A stretch of 63,448 nucleotides of DNA, filler included, from Collodictyon triciliatum (lineage: Eukaryota), in NCBI GenBank assembly GCA_043381765.1. It is 7 parts of 7 records of this genome, joined end to end, with 100 filler letters (N's around TTAATTAATTAA, not from the genome) between each part and the next. Parts side by side here need not be neighbours in the genome. Positions count along the whole stretch, not along the records: positions 22,815 to 34,110 come from JBHJMP010002438.1; 6 more parts are not named here. One strand, written 5' to 3'. Shown here piece by piece: positions 11,311 to 45,592 of the stretch. Made by a program: the position numbers and the translations under genes. The notes below the pieces were generated by a model. The model ran no database searches. It was not told the DNA's origin and saw nothing but the letters and a program-made list of their open reading frames with translations. Position 1 is the first letter of the stretch, and each line of letters begins with the position of its first letter.

Positions 11311-11410
11311 NNNNNNNNNNNNNNNNNNNNNNNNNNNNNNNNNNNNNNNNNNNNTTAATTAATTAANNNNNNNNNNNNNNNNNNNNNNNNNNNNNNNNNN
11401 NNNNNNNNNN
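11311..11410. other. Artificial contig linker N44-TTAATTAATTAA-N44
   Basis: The same 100-nt spacer recurs at 22715, 34111, 45493, 56884 and 59693; its 12-mer gives stops in all six frames. Confidence 0.97.
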
Positions 11411-21418: not shown

Positions 21419-22550
21419 TTATTCCTCAGATAATAGTATATCACACGAATGCTCTATACCTTTAACCACAAAACGACACAAAGGTTCAATATGGGTTTGC
21501 ATATGGCATTCCTTCATGATTTTACTCCATAGAACATGGAACGACTGTGGATCATCAAATCCTTTCGGGGTAATTATGGGAGGCAGTTGATTACTTTGTA
21601 GCACATAGTTTCCTATCAACCACGAAACAGCTAAATTCTTCTCTGCAAAAGGTGCAATAGATAGAAGATTGAAGTAGGCACGAGATGCAAGGATGACGAC
21701 ATCTTCCAGAGATGATGCCTTCGACTGTTTAGCTTCATTATTTAACCACTCCCAATAAATCTCCATCAGAGCAGGAACTTCATGCGGAGTTGCTTGCACG
21801 AGCGCCCACTGCGACTTTGTGGAGGGCCGAAGTAATGCCTGCTGCTCTGATGGTTTACATTCTTGCACAAGCATCGGACGATACAGCCCAGTCTTGAAAG
21901 CTGCCGTTTGTCGTGCACATATCATGTGTAAGCGAGTTAAGTGGGTGTGTGATAAAGTCAAGTCTGATATTCGAGACCATGATTGTATTTGCCGAACTGC
22001 AGCCAAACAATCATTATAGAGATGAGTACTTTCGGTTGATACCTTGGGTGTCACCAGATGTGGGTATGATTCTATCAGAAAAGTAGTTTTTGCAAACATA
22101 TCGGTAGTCTTTTGCACGTTCTGGTGTGTAAGAGGAATCCTCTTGTTCTGCAACCTGTGCACTTTTTCTTTCAGTTGGCCAATACCCCCAGGAAAGATAC
22201 TGGTGACTGTAAAACATGACTGAGCTTATTAAATGCTAAATACTTGAATAAAAATAAAATTGTTCTTAATCTCCATCCGATATTCTATACTTTAAGAAAA
22301 CGGTGTACATAGATATGCAAGAGGACAAAAGAAATTGACGCAATCACCGTTTTCATTTGGGTTTGAATCAAAAAGGCGAGTCTTTTGTAAGAAGTATATC
22401 CCTGCATGAAGGTCATCAATAGCCTCATCGTATTTTTCAACGGGGAAATCATCAATATTGATGTATTTCTGAAAAAAAAGGAACAATTATTTTTTTTTTA
22501 AAAAAAAACTCTTGTTCTGAATGTCTATGTTCATATTTCTATCAGGCTAA
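21419..22550 (-). CDS. Fic/Fido-domain protein (FICD/HYPE-like) with degenerate catalytic motif; 5' truncated
   Basis: LTLSHTHLTRLH, TGLYR, PHEVPALMEIYWEWLN and ASRAYFNLLSIAPFAEKNLAVSWLIGNYVLQSNQLPP follow the Fic core. An upstream exon is TPR-like (EKYDEAIDDL). Confidence 0.75.
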
Positions 22551-22714: not shown

Positions 22715-22814
22715 NNNNNNNNNNNNNNNNNNNNNNNNNNNNNNNNNNNNNNNNNNNNTTAATTAATTAANNNNNNNNNNNNNNNNNNNNNNNNNNNNNN
22801 NNNNNNNNNNNNNN
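22715..22814. other. Artificial contig linker
   Basis: N44-TTAATTAATTAA-N44. Confidence 0.97.
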
Positions 22815-22918
22815 CCCAATCCCAATCCCAATCCCAATCCCAATCCCAATCCCAATCCCAATCCCAATCCCAATCCCAATCCCAATCCCAATCCCAATCC
22901 CAATCCCAATCCCAATCC
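22815..22918 (+). repeat. (CCCAAT)n hexamer repeat, read as (Gln-Ser)n in the giant ORF
   Basis: CAA TCC codons are in the same stop-free frame as the ATG at 23105. Confidence 0.85.
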
Positions 22919-25900
22919 TCGTTTTATTATCCTCTTAATTCCACTGAAATTCTCCTCTCAAAATCTGTACAAACATACACCAAGACACGTAGTCTGACAT
23001 TTTCAACATCAATCTCGGAAAAGCAGACTTCGCCAGGCCACAGCCAAGGATTTTCAGAACGTATAATTTCGGAGACGCACGATGGTTTCTTAGAGAGTTC
23101 AAATATGCACTCCTCTTACACCAAAAGTTCAGAACGAAGTCGGTCCAGATCGGGTACTCCTCAAAACCTGAGAACTCCATCTATACACTCTCTCTCGTGG
23201 GCACAAAGGTCAACTGATGACTCTCCTGTATTTTCCCACGTGTCTTCAAAACATCATACCCGGTCAGTGCGGATATCGAAAAAAATGGAATCTAGTTCCA
23301 TGGATGAAAATCTTACCACACCCATAAACAGCCTGTATCTGACTCAATCGTCATATGGAATCGTTTCGAAACAAGCATCTTCTAATCATGGAACTAGGAT
23401 TCAGTCAACAAGTACTCATCTCAAGCAAACACCTAGCATTAAAAATACCAATGTAAAAGCAAGTGAAGCATCAAACTTCTCAAAATCAAATCCATTTAAC
23501 ACACTCTATTCAACAAAGATGTCCAAAACAATAACCGAATCTCGAGTTGGGAGCCAGAGTGTGAGTGATGTTAGGCGGACACATTTGAAATCCGATAGCC
23601 CTTCCATTCGCAAGAATACAGCAGTAACGAAAACGCGCTCTCCTATCTCAGAATCAAAATTACATTCGCTCTCAAAGAGCCATTCTCGTAGCCCTTCCAA
23701 CTCGCAAACTATCCCAAAAACACAGGATTGTCCTGGTAATACCACACGCAACATATGTGGTACTTGCAGTCTAGCTGAAGGACTCATTATACTGGAAACG
23801 AAAGGATTAAATAGTCAAACAAACATTGAAACCCACATAAACACAAATATTCACGGGCAACGATTCTCAAAATTCGTTCATACTATGCCAATATCCCCTA
23901 GTTGGGATTTAGTCGATTCGATAGGGAATATCAACCTACATCACAGCCAAAGTAATGACACATTACCGATGGAATCTATTTTCGGAGCACTGCAATCTGT
24001 CTTTATATACTCTAACAATCCGATTTTATCTATATTTGTGTGGGGAACAAACTTCTTCAACTCAACAAAGACTCAAGGGAAAATAGAGTTTGCTTTTCTG
24101 GAGGCACCAGAAATATATGGCTCATGCATATACGTTGGCTTGAAACCTTGCAAGGTTGAAGTTAACATACCTTCACAGTTGTTTTTTTCAGACATCAAGA
24201 AACTCACTGCTTCAATTCGACATGAATCGATATCCAAGACTTTATCTGAAGTGGAATTAAGGTTAATAACTACTCAATCGTCAAGTAATGTGATGGAATT
24301 CATCGGCGCATACATTCCTCAAGCTCCGGTATTTATTGGAGAAGAGTGTGTAATATTAATCAAACTAATGAGATATAACATCAATCCTCAAGCATACAAC
24401 GTGATTGACTTTTCACTAACTTTCGATTCTGACAATTTCCAATTCCTCCGATTTGAATCAGTAAATCCAAAATATACATTCACATTGAGCAACCAAAATG
24501 GAACATTAAACTCGGTTTGGCTGTCGGGGTCATCGAATCTATCCCCAAATAATCAGGTTGATGCAGAACTTACCTCCATGGTTTTTTTGTCCAAGAACAA
24601 CTCAAAGCCCGGAAACTTTAGTTTTGCATTAAATGTAAAGAGCATACTAGATAACACCTACGAACGTGTGGTGACAAATAGCCCTGGATATTTTTATGGA
24701 GCCAGTACAAATATCGGGGAAGGATTTATAATAACTAAATATGATATCCCTGTGGCTTATTTTATTACTAGTACGTATGACAATATAGCTAATATGAATC
24801 CTGTGTCTCCAAACTCGACGTATGTTGATTTCTATGTTTACCAAATTACAGAGCGCACAGGATTGTCCGAAATTACTGCCGATATTGATTGTATAATTGG
24901 GGATACCACTGTTCTTGGCTGTAGATTTTTATTGAGTTCAGATATCATCAACGCCCAAAGAGAAGAAAATGGTCTTCATATCCTAAGTGCAAAATATAAG
25001 TCTGCAACAACAAACATTATTGTGTGGCAACCAGTGTTTCCGTTGCTCATTCGAGTAATAGATTCTATACTAGAAGGAATATGCTGTGTCGATGATGCAA
25101 CTTCAAAAAATCCAGGTCCACTCCCAAACTTGTATCAATCTACCAGAGCAAGTGTTTTATGTAATTTTACCAATGGAATAAATTCATCGGTTACTATGGA
25201 CATAGCCAACTTTGTTAAAATTGAAGCATCCCGCCAAGATATAGTTTCTATCCAAAATAATTTGATCACTGGGCTGTCTACTGGAAAGAGCGATTTGTTC
25301 ATCAGAGGTCTCCCTTGTTTGACTCAAACCATTACGGTTTCATCAAGTACAGTTACTATTTTGAAATTTGAGTCTATGGCTATAGCATCATGGGGCTCGG
25401 ACCAGGTCTTCATTCCTCGAACCTCATCATCCATCATTAGTAACTATATATTCAACGGCTTCTTTGAACAAACATTTAAACATGAGGACCAGATTGGCAC
25501 CTTGGTAGCTTTTATCACATTTTCTGATGGACAGCGTTATGCAGTAACCAAAGAAATGGGCATAACATTTGAGTCAAAGTCTCCATATGTCCATATTGAA
25601 CAAGAACAAAACCAAATAACTGTGAAAGAGACAACATGTGCCCTTCATGTTATTGCACTATGGAGATATGGAGGATATATCGTATCAAAATCTCAAACGG
25701 TTATAAGAAGCTTATTACCTGCACCAACAAGGATTCAAGTGACGGTAAGTCAGACTCGCATAACCCGCTCTGGGGATATGGCCTCGACTGTTGGAATACC
25801 TACAGAATCTATTCTCAGTGTCAAGGTTTTTTTTGACGATGGAAGTTCTAATGACTATACCCTTGACAATCGAGTAAACATCGATGATAGCAGCCTAGAC

Positions 25901-28900
25901 CCCTTGAATATATTGGTGTGTAAGCATATCGACACAGGACTACAAACAGAGAGAAAAGTGCTTATGGCCAGTGGAAACGGGAACGGTATTGCTAATCTTG
26001 TTATCTCTCTAATACTTCATCCTGAAATTCCCAGTGTAACCACGCAAATACATGTTGTTACCTTCTCTCAATTGGTTGTAACCTTCCGTCCATACCCACC
26101 CTATCCTGGTTCGGACAGCATAGTAAAAAATACTTTGCAATTGCTACCGTGCGGAAGTGTATATGAAAAGAGCACCATACATCTAAGTGCAGTTCTTTCT
26201 GATAATAGCGACATAGATATTACTTACAATACAAATACAGCCTTTTCAATACCAGCCTTGAGTGCAAATAAGATATCCATCACCGATCGCAATGTCATTT
26301 ATCCCAACGGAAAAACTGTCGGAAATGCAGTCGTTCTTGCTTCGTATATGACACAAAGAACTTCTGGTTTCGTGACAATAAAACAGTCTGAACTCGAAAT
26401 AGTAAGCTTGTCTTTAGTATACCCAAGTATCGCAAAAGGCATCACAAAATCCTCTCCCGGTACTGTCGCACTAAAAGCCGTCTTAAAAAATGGAAACGTG
26501 GTCACCCAATCATCTCTTAGTAAAGGAGCAGTACTTTTTTCATCAAGCGCTCCAGATAATCTATGGATAAATTCCACCACTGGTGAAACAATCATTCTTG
26601 ATGGATACTGGTCTAGTATTACAATCGCTGCAACGACTTGCACAGGAATCTCGGCCACTGTAAACACTTTGCCCGTTGTTCTACCTGCTGTAGGGGATGT
26701 CGGGCTATTACTCCCTTCAGGTACCCAGTTGTGGAGCTCGACCATACAGCAGACACAAGATATTAATGTACTTTTCAATTCTGGAGGAAAAAATCTGAAA
26801 GGATTTGATATTAGTATTACCTATGATTATTACCTGGTAAGTTATGCTGGATATAAAACAGGAAATAATTGGTCTGGAGGACTTTTGGATGTGAATGCAG
26901 ACGATTCATCTGGAGTTATTCGTATTGTTGGGGTAATCAGTCCTTCATCAACTGTTGTGGGTGAATCGATTCACTTAATTAGCATAAAGATGAAAGCACA
27001 GTTGAACGGGTTCAGCAAAATCACTGGTTTCATCAATAAACTGTCGTCAGTTGATTATCCTGGTATCGTGAGGGATATAGGACTACCTATCGAGCCGTAT
27101 TCATCAAGACAATTTGTATCTGGGGCGATTTATGTGAGTATTGGTTCATCATTCAGTACATCTCCGAGAGGTTCAGCGTCCATAGGAGCTGGCAACACGG
27201 TCTTCCGTGAACAGAAAAATGAGACCATTTCAAGGACAAATATGCCGTCCCTTGCATCTAACATTACAGAAGACCATTCATTGAACAATACACAGAAAGG
27301 GACTAAAATACAAAGAAATAATGCACAGCCATTATCTTGCGTTGATAACAGTGCAAGCATTCGAGGAGATGTTGACGGGGATTGTGAATTTTCAATCAAA
27401 GATGTTGTTTATGGTGTTCACTATCTATCAAAGATTTCTGGGTTTACCATACCCCCTGAAAGATTGGCTATGGCTGACAGTGATAAGAATGGGATAATTC
27501 AAGCATCAGATATGGTATATTTGATACGCATTATATCTGGAAAGCTTAGATTTTTTGAACTGCTTGTACAATCTCCATCAAAGCAATCACCAGCGTTTGG
27601 GGTATCAATTGCATCTTATGATTGGACGGGTAAACAAGTCACTTCAAAGATGGGGTATGTTGTTTACCTTTTTACATTTTTGAACAAGAACATGTCTGTT
27701 ACAATAGGCTCTGCACGAAAAACAACAGCGACTGGGGTATCTATGAACGCACTACCAGTTCAAGATAGTAGCCTTGGAAATATATTCAAAGTTTCTGGGT
27801 TTATGGGTACAATCGAAACGTCAGTAGGTGTGTCAATAAAACAAATTACTTACACTGATGGACTCTCAACACAAAGTGATCGCCAGTACACATTCAACAT
27901 AGCTAACGACGGGGTGATGAAACCAATATCGTACATTTACCCACAATATGACGGGTCGTTACCGCCCGTTATGATATCGGCATTCTTCAATCGAGACGGA
28001 GACGCTGTTCGGATTATCTTTGATAAAGAAACTAATCGAGGAAATTTAGCAACAAATTTTGACTGTGGTAACCTTTTCGAAAATATGACCAGTTTTCGAT
28101 GTAAATGGGTCTCGGAATCTCAAGTAGACGTAAACTCGGCATGTTCACCCCAGGTCCAAGTGGGTTCTCAACTTATATTGGTGAAGAATACCATCAAGTC
28201 GAAAATATCATCCGATTCATCTGTATTTTCTAGTGGGACCATTTCAATTGATATGGGTGACCTTGACATTTACTTTAGTGCCGTAATTAGCGGTCCACAA
28301 TCAATTGGCGTATGCTCTCCTTTGGAGCTAGATACCTACCAAACTACATTGAGTGGGCTTGCATGTACCAATTTAACATACATATGGTCATTTTATACAT
28401 CCAGACCGATCGAAGTGTCTGATAGAGAAAAAGTCCAGCAAGTCTTGAGTAGCTCGAAGGATTCGCTATATCTGGGAGAATTTCTCCCACCAGAAATGAC
28501 TTATATATTTACTGTAAAAATAACCACAGCAGTTGGGGTTGCAAGTGTAGCTCGGTATACAACCACAAAGTATATAGACGCATTACCTATTGTTGGTATT
28601 AATGGACCTCCTCAAATGAACATATACCCATCTACTGCATTTTCAATTGGTGGTTACGCTTCTATACCTTATTGCGTCAATTCAACCAAATTGAACTTCT
28701 TATGGTCAGGAGTGCAAGGTCCACCGATAGAATTTAATTCCATAACAAGAACGACCAGAAACACACTTGTGGCAGCGTATTCGCTGAAACCATTTGAGAC
28801 TTATGTAATTCAATTTCAAGCTTGCTTCGTTTCAACTTCCCAAAGTTTGTGTAACAACGCTTCTTTGGTCGTTAATGTCCTTTCGTCAGGACTACGGGCA

Positions 28901-31900
28901 AGTATAAGTGGTGGTAGCTACATGTCCATAGGAACCGTCGGGGCGTATTCCGTGGATGCGTCAGACTCCCTAAATCTTGACTTAAAGAACCAGGGCGATA
29001 ATCTCGTTCGGTATTACCAGTGGTCTTGCACTGAGCAAGGGACTTCGTCTCCATGCAAGTTACGGATAAATGAAAACAAAGAAGAGGTACTCAACATCCC
29101 TAACGTAGCCACATTTGATATCATTCAATCAAAGGAGAAGTTCTTAAAGCCTGGTATATATACTATGAAGCTCGTATTCTATACTGATGATTCTCGGTAT
29201 TCCTCGGTTTCTACGTCAAAGACTGTAGAGGTCGTTGAAGGCTCGCCGCCACAGTTATTCATAACTTCTCTGTCTAAAACTCGTCCATCCCCTTCCAAGC
29301 CACTCAATATCCAAGTCAGTGGAAGACCAAGCTCTATGGGCAACATCATAAGCTATTTTTGGGTAGTTACTGAGGGTGCTGCTTCCATGACCAACTTGGG
29401 TATCGATGAATATGCTGTTCGTTCCCCGCGTTTTACAATTCCTTCAGGGTCTCTTGCACAAAATTCTGTTTATAATTTCCGAGTTACAGGTATTGAAAAT
29501 GGAACCAATGCTGTAGGCGTATCTGAAATCAGATTCCAGACTGATTTATTGCCTTATGGAGGTGATTTCGATTGCCCAGATCAAGTGAACTTTATGGAAC
29601 AAAACACTGTTATAGCCAGGGGATGGAAAACGACGGTCGAAAATCTTCCCCTAAGCTACTCGCTTGGGTACAAACTAACTGTTGATTCATTTGTTCAATA
29701 CATATCTGGATACTCTTTGAGCCCAAAAAGGACTATTGTTTTACCTCAAGGTGGGATGGACAGTCCGTATCTAGGCTCTGGGAGACTGGAGCTAATTCTA
29801 TTTATCAGAGATAATACTGGGAACCAAGTGTCATATTCATCGTACATCGATGTCAAATCTATTCAATTCTCGAGTGACGATGAAAGAGCCGAAAAGGTAG
29901 CGGATTATGTAAGAAAAGATATGTCCAATCTCATGGATATCGGGGACTACGAAGCTGTTGGGCAATATTCAATAGGATCTATCGGATTGTTGAATCAGAT
30001 GTCTTTATCGCGCTCTGGTGCTGTTGTCTCAAAGGATGAGCATTTACTGAACTCAACTCATGTTTCAAAAGTAAACATGACATTCCCTTTATCACACAAC
30101 AAAGGAGAAAATAATAACTCTATACGTTCATCAAAATTCCAAAGTTTTTGTGATTCGGTCACACAAAGAAAAGGGGCATTGTTGAGATACGAGATATTCA
30201 AGATTTTGCAATCCTGTAACTCGAATCAGAAATTCTACATAGCTGAAGACACGGATTCCAACATTAAAAAGTTTTCCTTCCTATTCCAAACTGACTGTCT
30301 TAGCTATAACTTGATTGAAGAAGGAGCTTCTTACTTTGAGTCACTCTCAAGTAAGTTCTCTCCATATTTTCTTGTTGATTTCTTGTTGCTTTCTTATTGT
30401 TCTCTCCTCGTCCTCATAGAATCATAATTTACGTTTTGTTACTTTTTTTCTGAAATCTATGTTAAATACATTGTTTTTCAATTAGAAAACTCGCGTGATA
30501 CATCAGTCATGCTCACTACAGGAGATAGTATTATGGATGCGTTTTCGTATATGTATAAATATGTGGTAGCAACCTACAAAAATGCAACTCTTGTGAACTC
30601 TATCGTTATGACCAAGGCCAGTGAAAGCGGGAAGGCAATCGGAAGGGCTGGAATGATAGGTTCTATGTGTGGTTCTTCATATCTATCACGAGCTTCATCT
30701 TCGATAACAGCCTCTTATGATGATGGAATACTACCTGTGGTTGTGTCAACGAACTGGATATGTCAAGACTTTGTTAATTTGAATGTTACTCTACCAACAA
30801 GTTCTGCACATACCAGCGTTTACCTGAAAAAATCCTCCGACATGAATTCTTTGGATCATAATGGTATCTTTGTGCATTTGACCCATCTCAACCCCAAATC
30901 TTTCGCTTTCAACCAACCAAATGTATCCACAGGGGTAATTAGTATTAGTACGGAATCATACGATGCTGCTTATTCTTCGGTCGGAACGAAAAATCCTAAC
31001 TTGGGCCAACTATTTGAGCATGCAAATATCCACCTTGTCAGGTTCAGCGAGGATGGCAGGTCTTATTCAAGAAATGACGCGTCCATTCCACATACCCGTT
31101 TTGCGATTGGTACTACAAGTGTTGCACATAACAAAGAGCATCCTCGAAGATATATGAACGCCAATATTGATTTCACGCGCAAAAACCAGCAAAGGATGGA
31201 GCCTCGTTGCTTCCAAACAAATAACCCACTAAATGGTGCTTGGGGGTCTGAAAACTGTATTCGACTTGCATTCGACGCTCAAAGTTTGGATTGCTCTTGC
31301 GCGCTCTCCAATAATATCTCGTCCTCTTCATATGGAGGTGTCAACGAATTTATCATACTGACAACCACTGCTACTACTGCGCCTACCGAATCCAGGTCAC
31401 ATAGCCCATCACGTACACACACACATGCCATAGCGACCCACAGCAGAAGCTCAAGTGCTGTTCATACTCAAGACGCTGACCAAAACACTGATAGTGGGGC
31501 TGGTTCCGACTCGCAAATAGCCATTCTCATCGGTTCGGTTGTGGGGGGAGTCATTGGTGTTTTAGGTATTTGTTTCTGCGCATTTTTTCTCTTGCGTCGC
31601 CGAAAAGTGAACAAAAATGCACCCGAACAAGGACAATCACACGTTTCAAAAAAGAATTACGGTTCTACCAGAAAAGAAAACAGCTCTCTGATAGGAATGT
31701 TTGGTAGAAATGGAAAAAATAAATCAATTGACCATCCGAAACAAAACGCGACAAATTCCACGGATGGCAGTGGTACGGAAAACATTACAAAGGACAATAG
31801 CAACCAAGATAGGCAAGCAAGGTCCGATAAGTTACTTGGTAACAATTTTCTATCAACAGCTTCCTCGATTTCTTCGCATACACCGCGCGATGACTCAAAA

Positions 31901-33865
31901 CCGAAAGGTCTGCTGGGTCGAATATTTTCAGGTGGTTGGAGGAATTATTTTATACGAACTCGTTCAAATGTACATCGAGTATACTTATCTGCTCACTCAA
32001 AATTAGGCAGTTCTGATGTCATATTGAGCTCTGTTGCGGATGAGGCAGCGTCAGAAGGACTTGAAATTAATGAACCAAGTGGGTCGTATCCACCTAAACC
32101 GAAGCGTCCATCACACACGAATTTTAAACGTGGCGCCAATTCTTCCTTGAGCCCGAATTCGAACCATCAATTAATTAACTCGAGGGAGAGCAGTCAGAGG
32201 AAAAATGACAATTCAGGAAAAGGCTCATCCCAATCTCCATCCCGTTGGCGTGGATTGAAAGCTTTGCGGGTTTTTCGCTCATTTTTACCATCAGAAGGGT
32301 CTACTCATTCGCTATCATCTGCAAGTAGTAGTCCAACAAATCTAGCCAAAGTGAACAATCAATCTCAAGAGGTAGTCCGAGCCAAAGCAGCCCAAAAATC
32401 ACACAAAAACCGTCCATATCCCGCACCTCCAACTCTACCCCCAGAAATACGGAATCATACTGGATTATCTGTTCCCTCTCTTCCTCCGCTGGATTCTTTA
32501 CCGGAGGAGATTCCCATACCACACTCAGAAATTCAATCCCATGTCCAGCCACAAAGCCAAAACATGCTCAACTCCCACTCAGATGCGATTCCTTCTCCAA
32601 AGTCTCCTGCGCGCTTAGAAGAGCAAGATGAGCCTAGAGAACCACAGAAAGAAACCCCAGTCCAAAACAATCATATTAATAACGGCTCTCTCCATGTGCG
32701 CCCAACTTTGGCTCCAAAGAAGTTCGAACCTGCAAAACTACAGGCCTTGAACACGCCTGGGAAACTCGTGAGTAATGTCATATATGACGAACGTGATAAG
32801 AAACTGCATGCAAAATCTGAGTTAGCCCCAGTCCAACCAAAAGTTTTGCCGCATATGTCGGCCTCACACAAAGTGCGTCTCCCGTCCTTAAACCAAGACC
32901 CCCATCCACCTTCGGTAGTTCATCACGCACAGCAACTACCGACCATTCCTGACTCAGTCTCTGCTCCACCTTTCATCCCAGAGTCCAACGAATCATCAGC
33001 GTTGAAACCTATTCATCAACCACCTCCTTTGCCGCCATCGATGATTCACTCGCTTAATAGAACACCGCTACCATCTCGCCCTACAACTTCACTCGCACCT
33101 TCACCCAACCGTACTCCGTCCCCTCATCCAAGAGCGTCACCTTTGTCACACCCATCAGTTCAAACCCCTATACACCATGATTCATCGCACCAAACTCAAA
33201 CTCCACCTCCCAAGTCATCCTTCGTTTCACCTCCAAATGGGAGTGCGATACATGCTCAACCAATCCCACATGAGATACCAAACGGAATCCACACATCCCA
33301 AGCATCGAAAATGAACCAAGAAGCTGTCGCGCCTGCCACCCCCGTTCCGAAGAAGACAAATCATGCTTCCTCCTTAATTCCCAGAATGCAGGAATCGCAT
33401 GTGAGTCCAACTCCAAAGACAGTGTCAGTTACAACTCCGACAAAACTGGAGCCACATCCTACAGTCCACCCCAGAACAGCAGCCTCCTCCCACATGAATT
33501 CTCCGTCTACCCCAGTAACCCTTCATACACAACCCGTCAGTACACAAAACAAGCCCCAACCAGAGTCCGCGAAGAGGCCATCCCCATCACCAACTGCCCC
33601 TCAAAAGCCGTCCTCCTCCTCCATATCTTCAAAAGTTGGTAGCACTGTTCCCCATTCAAATGCAAGGCTGGCACAACAAACAAGCGTCTCAGCGCTTCCT
33701 ATGCCAATGCCTCTTCCCGCAGCAAACCACCCAAACCAGCCTGTTTTGAAGCCTAAGTTAACTCCCCTGACGAGGCCATCGCAACTCTCATCGAATCCGT
33801 CCCATGCTGCACTAAGAGCACCCGCGATGCTTCCACGCGACTTGAATCGGCCACCAAAGTCCTAG
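22815..33865 (+). CDS. Giant (>3600 aa, 5'-truncated) single-pass surface protein: Ser/Thr stalk, TMEM132-like cohesin/Ig modules, cohesin, dockerin, REJ, GPS, TM, Pro-rich tail
   Basis: Two exons (22815-30350, 30486-33865) joined in phase by a GTAAGT..TTAG intron. TMEM132-like VWQPVFPLLIRVIDSILEGI and LYQSTRASVLCNF (~25020-25170). Cohesin-like INVLFNSGGKNLKGFDISITYD (~26760). Dockerin GDVDGDCEFSIKDV...ADSDKNGIIQASDMVYL (27365-27544). REJ-like AVISGP, ASISGG, LPYGG (~28270-29850). GPS C..W...C..C-S-C (~31208-31300). TM IAILIGSVVGGVIGVLGICFCAFFLL-RRRK (~31517-31605). Confidence 0.88.
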
Positions 33866-34063
33866 GATTCCACGGACAAACTACCCAGTCTTCAAGCAAC
33901 CAATCGAACAAAAAAAAGTCACAGAAAAAAATAAAAGAAAAATACCTAGCCTCGTCTTGCATCTTTGAAGTGAGGTACCTTCCCACATTCTTCAACCTCT
34001 TCAATAGATATTTTTCCTTTTTTCTTTATCTTTTTTCTTTTTTCTTTTTTCTTTTTTCTTTTT

Positions 34064-34110
<47 letters not shown>

Positions 34111-34210
34111 NNNNNNNNNNNNNNNNNNNNNNNNNNNNNNNNNNNNNNNNNNNNTTAATTAATTAANNNNNNNNNNNNNNNNNNNNNNNNNNNNNNNNNN
34201 NNNNNNNNNN
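34111..34210. other. Artificial contig linker
   Basis: N44-TTAATTAATTAA-N44. Confidence 0.97.
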
Positions 34211-35261: not shown

Positions 35262-36590
35262 CTTTTTTTTTAATATACATACTTTAAAGTTCAAGAAGGT
35301 TTACAAACCGAGAGTTAAAAAGAGTACACATGACAGAGGGCAAACGCGAGTGGGGGAAGACACTACCGTGGAGAGGCTAGCACCGAAAAGAAATCAGTGA
35401 TAGCGAGTTGGTCAAGTGGATGGCTATATTGGTTGATTGGTTGCGTGGGTAGCAGGGGGTTGGATATGCTGTGGGAGATATCTTACGACACATTCCCACA
35501 TCTCTCTTCGCTTGAGGTCAGAGTAACATGGAATGCGGGCGTCTTTAAGCAGGCTGTTCAGGAAGCTGTATTGCACGAGGCTTTCAACAATGGATACATT
35601 GATTTCTCGTTCGGGTGAATCATTAGAGCGAGAGAATGCACGCACACTCCATAGGGCCCACAGCTTATATTCCTTCGTGACTGTCCAGAGTATTCTAGAG
35701 TCGTGGGTCATTTGGTATTGTGCGCCAAACAGGATGTCTGACGCGCTGAGTCGGTTGGGAGCATAATCAAGCTCAGAGAGCATCTTGTGGGTAGACTCTG
35801 TCACTTTTTGAGCAAGAGAGCACTTCACAAATGCGTGTTCGATAGAGTTATCTCCACTATGGCACATGGTGCATTCTGGAGAGGTCGTTGCTGCATGGAC
35901 TACACGCGCACACTTATCCACAGCTCTCTGTTGGAGATATTGAGCAGTAGGGCGCGGTGTTTCGGAAGTAGCTGAGATATACGGACTTGCTTCCAGCTTT
36001 TGACTATCGGCGGGTCTATAATGTCTATAGTTTCGGCCCACCGACTCATCTTCTCCGGTTTGTAGGGATTCGGATTGATGACTATATATCCAAACAGCTT
36101 GGAGTACGCCATGGCCATCGAGAATTGCGGAGAATCAGGCGTAATGGACCGCCTTTGGTTTTTCAGGCAAAAGAAAAATGGTGACAGCGCTCCGTATGAG
36201 ATGGGGCGAAGTGAGCGCCATTCTCCTTTGTTGTTCAGGACGGCTGTGGTTGGGGTTGCATTCGAGGAGTGAGATATCGTTGCATTTTTCGACGGTGCGA
36301 AGCTCCCATCCTTTTGGAAAGCGACTTGTTGAAGAAAGAAGGAACTGCTTCAATCACCTGAAGCGAACATCTTAGCAGCAATTTAGACGAAGGAATGACC
36401 GAAGGTAATAGATAAGGGAAATGGTCTCGCAGCAACTATCTTGTGGAAGAAGGGGATAAGTAAATTCGACAATTTTTGATAGGAATTCGACGTTTTCAGT
36501 AGGAATGCTCCTATTGCACGGAAGCAAGTGGGCACTAAACCAAGGAAACCAGTCCTAGTGTTCGTTTGTTTCCAAAGGGAGTACATAGAC
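35262..36590 (-). mobile_element. Degenerate 5'-truncated non-LTR retrotransposon (L1/Tx1-like ORF2 C-terminus with zf-RVT)
   Basis: CCHC knuckle CTMCHSGDNSIEHAFVKC, then LSASDILFG and LWALWSVR, typical of the region after the RT domain; frameshifts upstream; poly(A) at ~35263-35271. Confidence 0.8.
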
Positions 36591-45492: not shown

Positions 45493-45592
45493 NNNNNNNN
45501 NNNNNNNNNNNNNNNNNNNNNNNNNNNNNNNNNNNNTTAATTAATTAANNNNNNNNNNNNNNNNNNNNNNNNNNNNNNNNNNNNNNNNNNNN
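45493..45592. other. Artificial contig linker
   Basis: N44-TTAATTAATTAA-N44. Confidence 0.97.

Follow-up and report, generated by a model that had tools for sequence, protein, structure and literature searches.

Cohesin and dockerin modules are known from bacteria and archaea, where they link one protein to another (excerpts of PMC4728124 and PMC6030884), and the question arises what the two are doing side by side in one protein of a eukaryote. It is raised by a stretch of 63,448 nucleotides from the protist Collodictyon triciliatum (NCBI GenBank assembly GCA_043381765.1), referred to here as the window, in which contig JBHJMP010002438.1 (positions 22,815 to 34,110) carries the gene of a single-pass surface receptor. 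A first-pass annotation of the sequence had noticed the pair and proposed a possible cellulosome-like assembly system, with an intramolecular clasp, chain polymerisation or cell-cell zippering, and docking of secreted dockerin-bearing enzymes as options. The pair is real and puts known parts to a new use, and the cellulosome framing should be dropped. The reading favored here, at a probability of about 0.6, is that cohesin and dockerin are a cognate pair within one receptor, that the spacer between them is cut, and that a calcium-dependent clasp would hold the severed ectodomain.

Cohesin and dockerin folds

The first-pass annotation had pointed to two loop-helix repeats about 75 residues after a cohesin-like beta domain. 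Both repeats, GDVDGDCEFSIKDVVYGVHYL at 27365-27427 and ADSDKNGIIQASDMVYLIRII at 27473-27535, lie in a large frame on the + strand, and the dockerin-type pattern has only one match across the six frames of the whole window. The last cohesin strand is 75 residues from the dockerin, as had been said, and the beta domain proved cohesin-like, with a start at about 26681, slightly 5' of the 26745 first proposed. The modules and the spacer between them are as follows.

26681..27148, + strand: second cohesin, which pairs with the dockerin as its cognate partner; structural matches to type I/II cohesins at Z 13-15; covarying Val at 26927-26929
27149..27337, + strand: disordered spacer of ~63 residues with three N-glycosylation sequons; predicted local distance difference test score (pLDDT) <50 at model residues 166-214
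27338..27544, + strand: type I dockerin with leader Cys; loop-helix 1 at 27365-27427, loop-helix 2 at 27473-27535, covarying Ser at 27536-27538

The calcium-ligand positions 1, 3, 5, 9, and 12 read D-D-D-S-D and D-D-N-Q-D in the two window repeats, and Asp occupies loop position 12 in 98-100% of the family. The leader Cys of the dockerin probably forms a disulphide with the Cys of loop 1. The window sequence matched Dockerin_1 (PF00404) with an E-value of 0.0068 and 17 bits, short of the gathering score of 22.9, which is reached by the homologues P0031, P0086, P0088, P0095, P0098, P0106, and P0127; no Pfam Cohesin match was obtained from the window sequence alone. When a family profile of 64 aligned segments was searched against the PDB, type I dockerins came first (E 1e-7), followed by cohesins (0.02-0.1), and EF-hand proteins did not appear before E 0.2. 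For 26681-27961, the AlphaFold model has a mean pLDDT of 87.6 and a predicted template modelling score (pTM) of 0.84. Its top 16 structural matches are cohesins (Z 11.5-15.0), the cohesin structure 2xdh being among the structural matches, and its dockerin superposes on 2ccl_B with Z 10.9 and a root-mean-square deviation of 1.2 A over 62/62 residues. By profile and model, the window modules are confirmed as a nine-stranded cohesin jelly-roll and a type I dockerin with its three-helix fold. The possibility that the repeats are ordinary EF-hands, which the first-pass annotation had named as one of the outcomes that would overturn it, was ruled out by the ranks of the family profile and by the fold match to 2ccl_B.

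Cognate pairing of the two modules

When 164 cis pairs (effective number 125) were subjected to mean-field coupling analysis, the strongest coupling of the whole alignment fell between the modules, at cohesin column 83 and dockerin column 67 (z 9.4). This was followed by cohesin 41 with dockerin 13 (z 7.0) and by weaker couplings of cohesin 74-76 and 121 to dockerin 71 and 21. Columns 83 and 67 trade size, with 74 occurrences of Gly-Phe and 46 of Val paired with Ala, Val or Ser; Val-Ser is the state of the window copy. In neighbour-swap controls (8/8), the same column pair reached only z 1.7-4.0 and any inter-module pair 5.7 at most. The signal persists when the paralogues of this genome are removed, and the covarying states change 8-11 times on quick trees. 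In 16 multi-unit proteins of mixed state, a cohesin and the dockerin next downstream of it agree in 38 of 41 pairings, and a cohesin and any other dockerin in its chain agree in 26 of 74. The covarying cohesin positions presumably lie on strands of the dockerin-binding face. The covarying dockerin positions fit the helix-1 mode and the helix-end contact given in excerpts of PMC4728124 and PMC12484212, respectively.

The model agrees with a docked pair. Its pTM of 0.84 includes 49 low-confidence residues, and the pTM formula gives ~0.8 for docked and ~0.5 for independent halves; the two ordered halves therefore share one frame. The model of a short-linker bacterial segment has a pLDDT of 92.9 and a pTM of only 0.67, which is what loosely placed halves would give; this suggests that a long or a cut linker is needed for docking in cis. 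The intramolecular clasp, one of the options in the first-pass annotation, thus gains support from both covariation and model.

Protease sites in the spacer

The spacer was compared over 118 homologous linkers longer than 24 residues from 84 proteins, the expectation being taken from same-length windows of the same proteins. The pattern Rx[KR]R occurs in 81 of these linkers (0.7 expected) and [KR]R in 111 (7.9 expected). A dibasic site of furin/kexin type lies 3-9 residues past the cohesin in 107/118 and within 8 residues of the first Cys in 95/118. Both spacer ends carry one in 92/118, as against 11 (maximum 20) in 1,000 composition-keeping shuffles, and the stretch between the two sites is 6-93 residues long. 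Sorted by linker length before the Cys, a dibasic site is present in 0/15 linkers of up to 8 residues and in 114/122 longer ones. One clade, which includes the Cymbomonas protein, favours RRxL in the spacer, which is taken here to be the pattern of site-1 protease. With a variable spacer bracketed by convertase sites, the chain would be severed between the modules unless cohesin and dockerin bind. Position-fixed, paired convertase sites around a cohesin-dockerin spacer are a new observation, and neither this pattern nor the TMEM132-like cassette described below was covered by the first-pass annotation.

The linkers of this genome carry the pattern in a weaker form. Arg is three times as frequent in them as elsewhere in these proteins, and basic residues stand at both ends in 11 of 17 non-redundant linkers of the lineage, compared with 4.8 in shuffles (P 0.0008, with windows chosen after looking). 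The window spacer has a single Arg near each end, in SPR/G at 27161 and KIQR/N at 27305.

The host receptor

The window consists of several contigs joined by runs of N at 11311-11410, 22715-22814, 34111-34210, 45493-45592, 56884-56983, and 59693-59792. Because of these spacers, the flanking genes are no true neighbours and were left out of the analysis. Both dockerin motifs are part of a 2,536-codon open frame on the + strand. The product begins with a Ser/Thr-rich region, followed by the TMEM132-like cassette with a first, divergent cohesin, the second cohesin, the disordered spacer and the dockerin; after these come a conserved beta-sandwich, a REJ domain, a GAIN-like region whose GPS is degenerate, a single membrane helix and a tail. 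The 5' end of the gene is missing, the contig edge falling inside a Gln-Ser repeat. The remaining features are listed below.

22817..33865, + strand: receptor gene, single-pass surface receptor of at least 3,637 residues; two exons seen; fills contig C2438 (JBHJMP010002438.1)
24215..26680, + strand: TMEM132-like cassette, first cohesin-like domain and then Ig/BIG domains; family profile E 1.6e-155
24311..24709, + strand: first (TMEM132-type) cohesin-like domain, divergent, with no dockerin after it; weak match to the family cohesin profile, E 6e-4
27548..27961, + strand: conserved beta-sandwich, directly after the dockerin in eukaryotic and bacterial members
28673..29971, + strand: REJ domain, PF02010 E 4e-34, above cut-off
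30002..30151, + strand: putative second basic spacer, Cys-closed, at the start of the GAIN-like region, as judged from paralogues
30351..30485, + strand: intron of 135 nucleotides, GT..AG, in-frame; skipped by contigs of runs X1 and X2
31208..31306, + strand: degenerate GPS-like motif, without the His-Leu-Thr/Ser triad
31517..31594, + strand: single transmembrane helix followed by an RRRK stop-transfer; the sole strongly hydrophobic segment, mean hydropathy 2.56
31595..33865, + strand: cytoplasmic tail of 757 residues, Pro/Ser-rich, no RVxF motif

Removal of the intron, seen in contigs with cDNA adaptor ends from two runs, joins two long frames in phase, and transcript pieces from two of three runs span the cohesin-dockerin region. 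The gene is thus transcribed and spliced, and the host is eukaryotic, as first annotated, because cDNA-type contigs of two runs skip an in-frame GT..AG intron. Bacterial contamination of the window was considered and ruled out by the spliced intron, the cDNA adaptor ends and the REJ/GPS architecture.

The cassette profile was built from 110 upstream segments, the window's own segment among them. The window cassette gave no direct Pfam match; the cassette of the paralogue L030 matches Ig_TMEM132_4th (E 3e-11), and TMEM132 Ig matches were also found in the homologue P0003. Against the family cohesin profile, the first cohesin-like domain scores better in P0003 (1e-9) and in paralogues than in the window. 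It lies ~800 residues from the cognate cohesin, and no scaffoldin-like tandem array is present in this transmembrane receptor. Pfam detected no carbohydrate module and no cadherin match in the window protein. In the bacterial model, the beta-sandwich after the dockerin weakly resembles a macroglobulin domain (Z 8.3); the ESM Atlas returned cohesin/dockerin clusters only and nothing clear for this beta-domain. The window has no PF01825 match at the GPS, and its paralogues do match (L064 4e-11, L065 2e-4).

Paralogues in the genome

The window segment matches 31 loci of this genome, and one further locus starts inside the dockerin at a contig edge, which gives 32. The complete pair is found in 27 of them, four are cut by contig ends, and in one (L042) the first loop has decayed. 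Some of the loci that are nearly identical may be allelic. Many paralogues share dockerins that are ~90% identical, and the window copy is among the most divergent, with a dockerin 46% identical to a typical one.

A search of the genome with PF00963 gave 23 matches, all in loci of the receptor family and 22 of them above cut-off, the window copy not being among them. All of 28 matches to the dockerin of a paralogue were likewise loci of the receptor family. The 14 genome matches of PF00404 comprise ten family members, calmodulin and another EF-hand protein, and two that were not opened. An exon-by-exon search of the fragmented, intron-rich assembly for other dockerin or cohesin proteins found no dockerin-bearing enzyme, the other Dockerin_1 matches that were opened being EF-hand proteins, and Pfam found no catalytic domain in the window protein or in the paralogues scanned. 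The proposed cellulosome-like assembly and its docking of secreted enzymes are therefore not supported, the 23/23 cohesin and 28/28 dockerin matches lying in one receptor family; this speaks against separate dockerin-bearing enzymes without proving their absence.

Two divergent loci, L042 and L044, have lost the first calcium loop or the leader Cys and have no basic residues at the spacer ends; they are natural controls for the clasp. In L016:370-9999, seven IPT/TIG domains and long Gln-Ser repeats are placed between the dockerin unit and the REJ-type stalk, and Gln-Ser repeats occur at the same place in many paralogues. A second basic, Cys-closed spacer after the REJ domain, at the start of the GAIN-like region, was observed in L029, L031, and L064. 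It suggests that a protease acts on these receptors and may be a second convertase site.

Homologues in other organisms

An unindexed search of 1.84 billion representatives recovered 125 homologous proteins; a word-indexed homologue search with the full-length protein region gave no matches. The best match outside this genome is the Diphylleia rotans protein P0003, which has an equal architecture and an intact GPS. The order is nearly always cohesin and then dockerin, with at most four units per chain when prokaryotic-looking multi-dockerin proteins are set aside. The latter include one cluster named Patescibacteria. With the paralogues included, 165 of 182 cohesin matches are paired with a downstream dockerin; most of the others are first-type cohesins or stand at cut ends. 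The partner domains in the 38 of 125 homologues scanned with Pfam are cadherin, TSP1, EGF, TNFR, VWA, and ankyrin, usually behind a TMEM132 cassette. Cadherin repeats are found in homologues such as P0019, P0020, P0033, and P0038; from their domain content, the cadherin-bearing homologues would be holozoan, from sponges or choanoflagellates. Named members among the 30 clusters looked up are Diphylleia and the green alga Cymbomonas. The protein P0157 has cohesin, EGF and tyrosine-phosphatase domains and is labelled as from a Rhodobacteraceae bin, yet its domain content looks eukaryotic.

A bacterial clade has ~5 residues from the cohesin to the leader Cys of the dockerin. In GTDB, 13 of 15 loci have the short linker; 10 of these 13 carry the label Myxococcota or Deltaproteobacteria or sit on an unlabelled 9.3-Mb chromosome, and the other three are labelled Enterobacteriaceae, with a G+C content of 64-66%. 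The remaining two of the 15 loci are short contigs with long linkers. These contigs (L080, L081) are filed in a 'Bacteroidetes' bin, and the receptors that they encode are of the present type, having a GAIN-like region, Gln-Ser repeats and linkers with RxL; they are probably stray DNA of a related protist. The loci L069-L079, L082, and L083 encode Myxococcota-type giant proteins with a full TMEM132-like cassette and cohesin-dockerin, in several of which the N-terminus is lipoprotein-like. The existence of a TMEM132 cassette in bacteria is relevant to how the animal family arose. On a quick tree, which has no real root, the short-linker bacterial clade adjoins this lineage with a support of 0.83.

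A proposed cut and clasped receptor and its alternatives

In the favored reading, the spacer would let cohesin and dockerin meet in the secretory pathway, and a proprotein convertase would cut one or both spacer ends during secretion. The calcium-loaded dockerin on the membrane-bound stalk would hold the severed N-terminal part, consisting of the TMEM132-like cassette and cohesin, non-covalently. A pulling force or the loss of calcium would free this part, resulting in shedding or in a mechanical signal to the REJ/GAIN-like stalk. Cleavage is likely in the cadherin-bearing homologues; in the window copy it is the weakest step of the reading and somewhat doubtful.

Several observations weigh against this reading. 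Covariation reports cognate pairing and does not separate cis from trans; the well-supported branches give only 5 independent contrasts for the covarying pair (4 concordant, 0 opposite, sign test p 0.125). Model and covariation use overlapping sequences and are not independent, and docking in the model is deduced from the pTM and not from a view of the interface. The short-linker bacterial proteins show equal covarying states, so that the pair can apparently work without a spacer, probably in trans. The window spacer has neither Rx[KR]R nor a dibasic site, its whole ectodomain has no furin site, and the copy narrowly fails the both-ends basic test. The 27 linkers of this genome hold Rx[KR]R in 0/27 and [KR]R in 2/27. 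No kexin/furin P-domain or pro-domain was detected in the genome by an exon-wise search of the fragmented, intron-rich assembly, in which the pro-domain search matched no control. The decay of L042 and L044 also counts on this side.

With only single arginines in the window spacer and no kexin found, the loop may be uncut in the window copy. If so for the whole lineage, the spacer would be a hidden, uncleaved loop and the pair a sacrificial bond that is opened by force or low calcium, lengthening the ectodomain by ~25 nm (63-66 residues at 0.4 nm) and releasing nothing. The uncut chain was modelled docked, in keeping with this, but basic residues cluster at both spacer ends in the lineage, P0003 retains KR before the Cys, and L080 and L081 have RxL motifs. 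The second basic spacer at the GAIN-like region also speaks against an uncut loop, as does the presence of a site-1 protease; the nine subtilase matches of the genome are six secreted subtilisins and site-1 protease fragments. An uncut clasp, the main rival, is judged unlikely. Homotypic binding in trans would join the cohesin of one copy to the dockerin of a second, located on the same cell or on one facing it; such binding would build chains or zippers and would fit the cognate covariation equally well. The many paralogues with nearly identical dockerins agree with it, and the short-linker bacterial relatives, for which a single chain is not confidently docked, point to trans binding there. 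A flexible spacer would, however, keep the tethered partner at a very high local concentration, the single chain of the window is modelled docked, and in the homologues, cutting at the paired convertase sites would break the chain if the adjacent modules did not bind each other; trans binding is accordingly judged improbable.

Docking of secreted dockerin-bearing enzymes on receptor cohesins at the cell surface has in its favor that both folds are true and that the first cohesin, with no adjacent dockerin, is free in principle. It is set against the confinement of all cohesin and dockerin matches to the receptor family, the lack of a catalytic domain in the proteins scanned and the strict one-to-one adjacency, and is very improbable. 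Equally improbable is a relic in which the modules are inherited structural spacers that have lost mutual binding in the window copy. The divergence of this copy, its scores below Pfam cut-offs and the decay seen in L042 and L044 would suit a relic, but the window copy retains every calcium-ligand position, the two Cys and the covarying Val-Ser state, and the gene is transcribed.

Relation to known systems

Type I cohesin-dockerin pairs (1ohz, 2ccl, 2vn5, 6kgc) are alike in both folds and in the duplicated calcium loop-helix with Asp at 1, 3, 5, and 12. Bacterial cellulosome pairs differ in that here both halves are in one chain, one to one and in fixed order, in a eukaryotic membrane receptor. 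In addition, the present pair has a leader disulphide, which is probable, and a fixed beta-domain after the dockerin, it has no Ser-Thr recognition pair, no enzymes and no scaffoldin, and the spacer of its homologues has convertase sites. The Myxococcota-type giant proteins have the TMEM132-like cassette, the cohesin, the dockerin and the beta-domain after it in common with the window protein, and differ by the ~5 residues from cohesin to leader Cys, the lack of basic sites and a single-chain model that is not confidently docked. A non-cellulosomal protein of Archaeoglobus fulgidus, ORF2375, reportedly has cohesin and dockerin in one chain, and a dockerin may already have been annotated in Monosiga or sponge coherins. 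The adjacency of cohesin and dockerin may therefore not itself be new. Cohesin-dockerin pairs rupture at more than 100 pN (excerpts of PMC4728124 and PMC6030884), the former giving ~104-140 pN for related bacterial pairs.

The partial text of PMC6030884 describes cohesins in choanoflagellate and sponge cadherins, which the first-pass annotation does not mention, and reports the TMEM132 cassette from animals as well as from the coherin, lefftyrin and hedgling cadherins. It places one cohesin before BIG domains, states that dockerins are not detectable in vertebrates and leaves the partner of the cohesin open. That portion of the text has no second cohesin with adjacent dockerin and no cleavable spacer; Figure S2 of the paper may show dockerins. 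The idea of gene transfer for coherin cohesins is repeated in an excerpt of PMC8164589. TMEM132 and coherin proteins resemble the window protein in their cohesin-like and Ig/BIG domains and as single-pass surface proteins, and many homologues add cadherin repeats. Coherin cadherins have cadherin repeats where the window protein has a REJ domain and GAIN-like stalk. In the TMEM132 family the cassette directly precedes the membrane helix, whereas the window protein has ~1,550 further residues and a tail without RVxF.

In REJ-GAIN receptors and adhesion G-protein-coupled receptors, the ectodomain is cleaved yet stays attached. Polycystin-1 and these receptors share the REJ domain and the GPS motif, the latter with the paralogues and Diphylleia P0003. 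Compared with polycystin-1 and the REJ-GAIN receptors, the window protein has one transmembrane helix, no PLAT or channel region and a degenerate GPS; the proposed joint would lie ~1,300 residues further out and would consist of two separate folded modules and calcium. The Notch heterodimerisation domain, with its furin S1 site, and the SEA domain of mucins are cut in the secretory pathway and held non-covalently, and force or calcium chelation can separate the parts. In those cases the cut falls within a single domain, which remains folded, whereas here two autonomous bacterial-type modules would bind across an excised spacer, in a cohesin-dockerin unit that is repeated up to four times per chain.

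The open literature, with subscription journals outside the search, gave no convertase-flanked spacer, no cognate covariation and no cohesin-dockerin in REJ-GAIN receptors or CRuMs. If true, the cut and clasped receptor would be a third way, beside GAIN and Notch/SEA, to build a cleaved-but-attached receptor. The joint would be common to a CRuMs protist, a green alga and cadherin-bearing proteins, and its natural cohesin-dockerin pairs would be adapted to the eukaryotic secretory pathway. It would also give a testable answer to the open partner of eukaryotic cohesins, namely a dockerin of the same chain across a spacer with convertase sites. A wider and speculative proposal, rather unlikely as a whole, is that this would be an ancient eukaryotic joint of bacterial type, in which convertase-cut giant surface proteins are re-joined by calcium-dependent cohesin-dockerin clasps and ectodomains become detachable and exchangeable. 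The ~30 paralogues, whose clasps are much alike, could then swap tips between stalks, a sequence code would order two to four segments in the cadherin-bearing holozoan proteins, and the TMEM132 of animals would have retained the cassette as a remnant after losing the joint.

Other contigs of the window

The other contigs of the window hold a weak Fic-like match at 21419-22222 on the - strand (E 5e-4) and a zf-RVT retroelement fragment at 35427-36134, also on the - strand (E 6e-4). An exon of Integrator subunit 3 was found at 61391-61924 on the + strand (E 1e-10).

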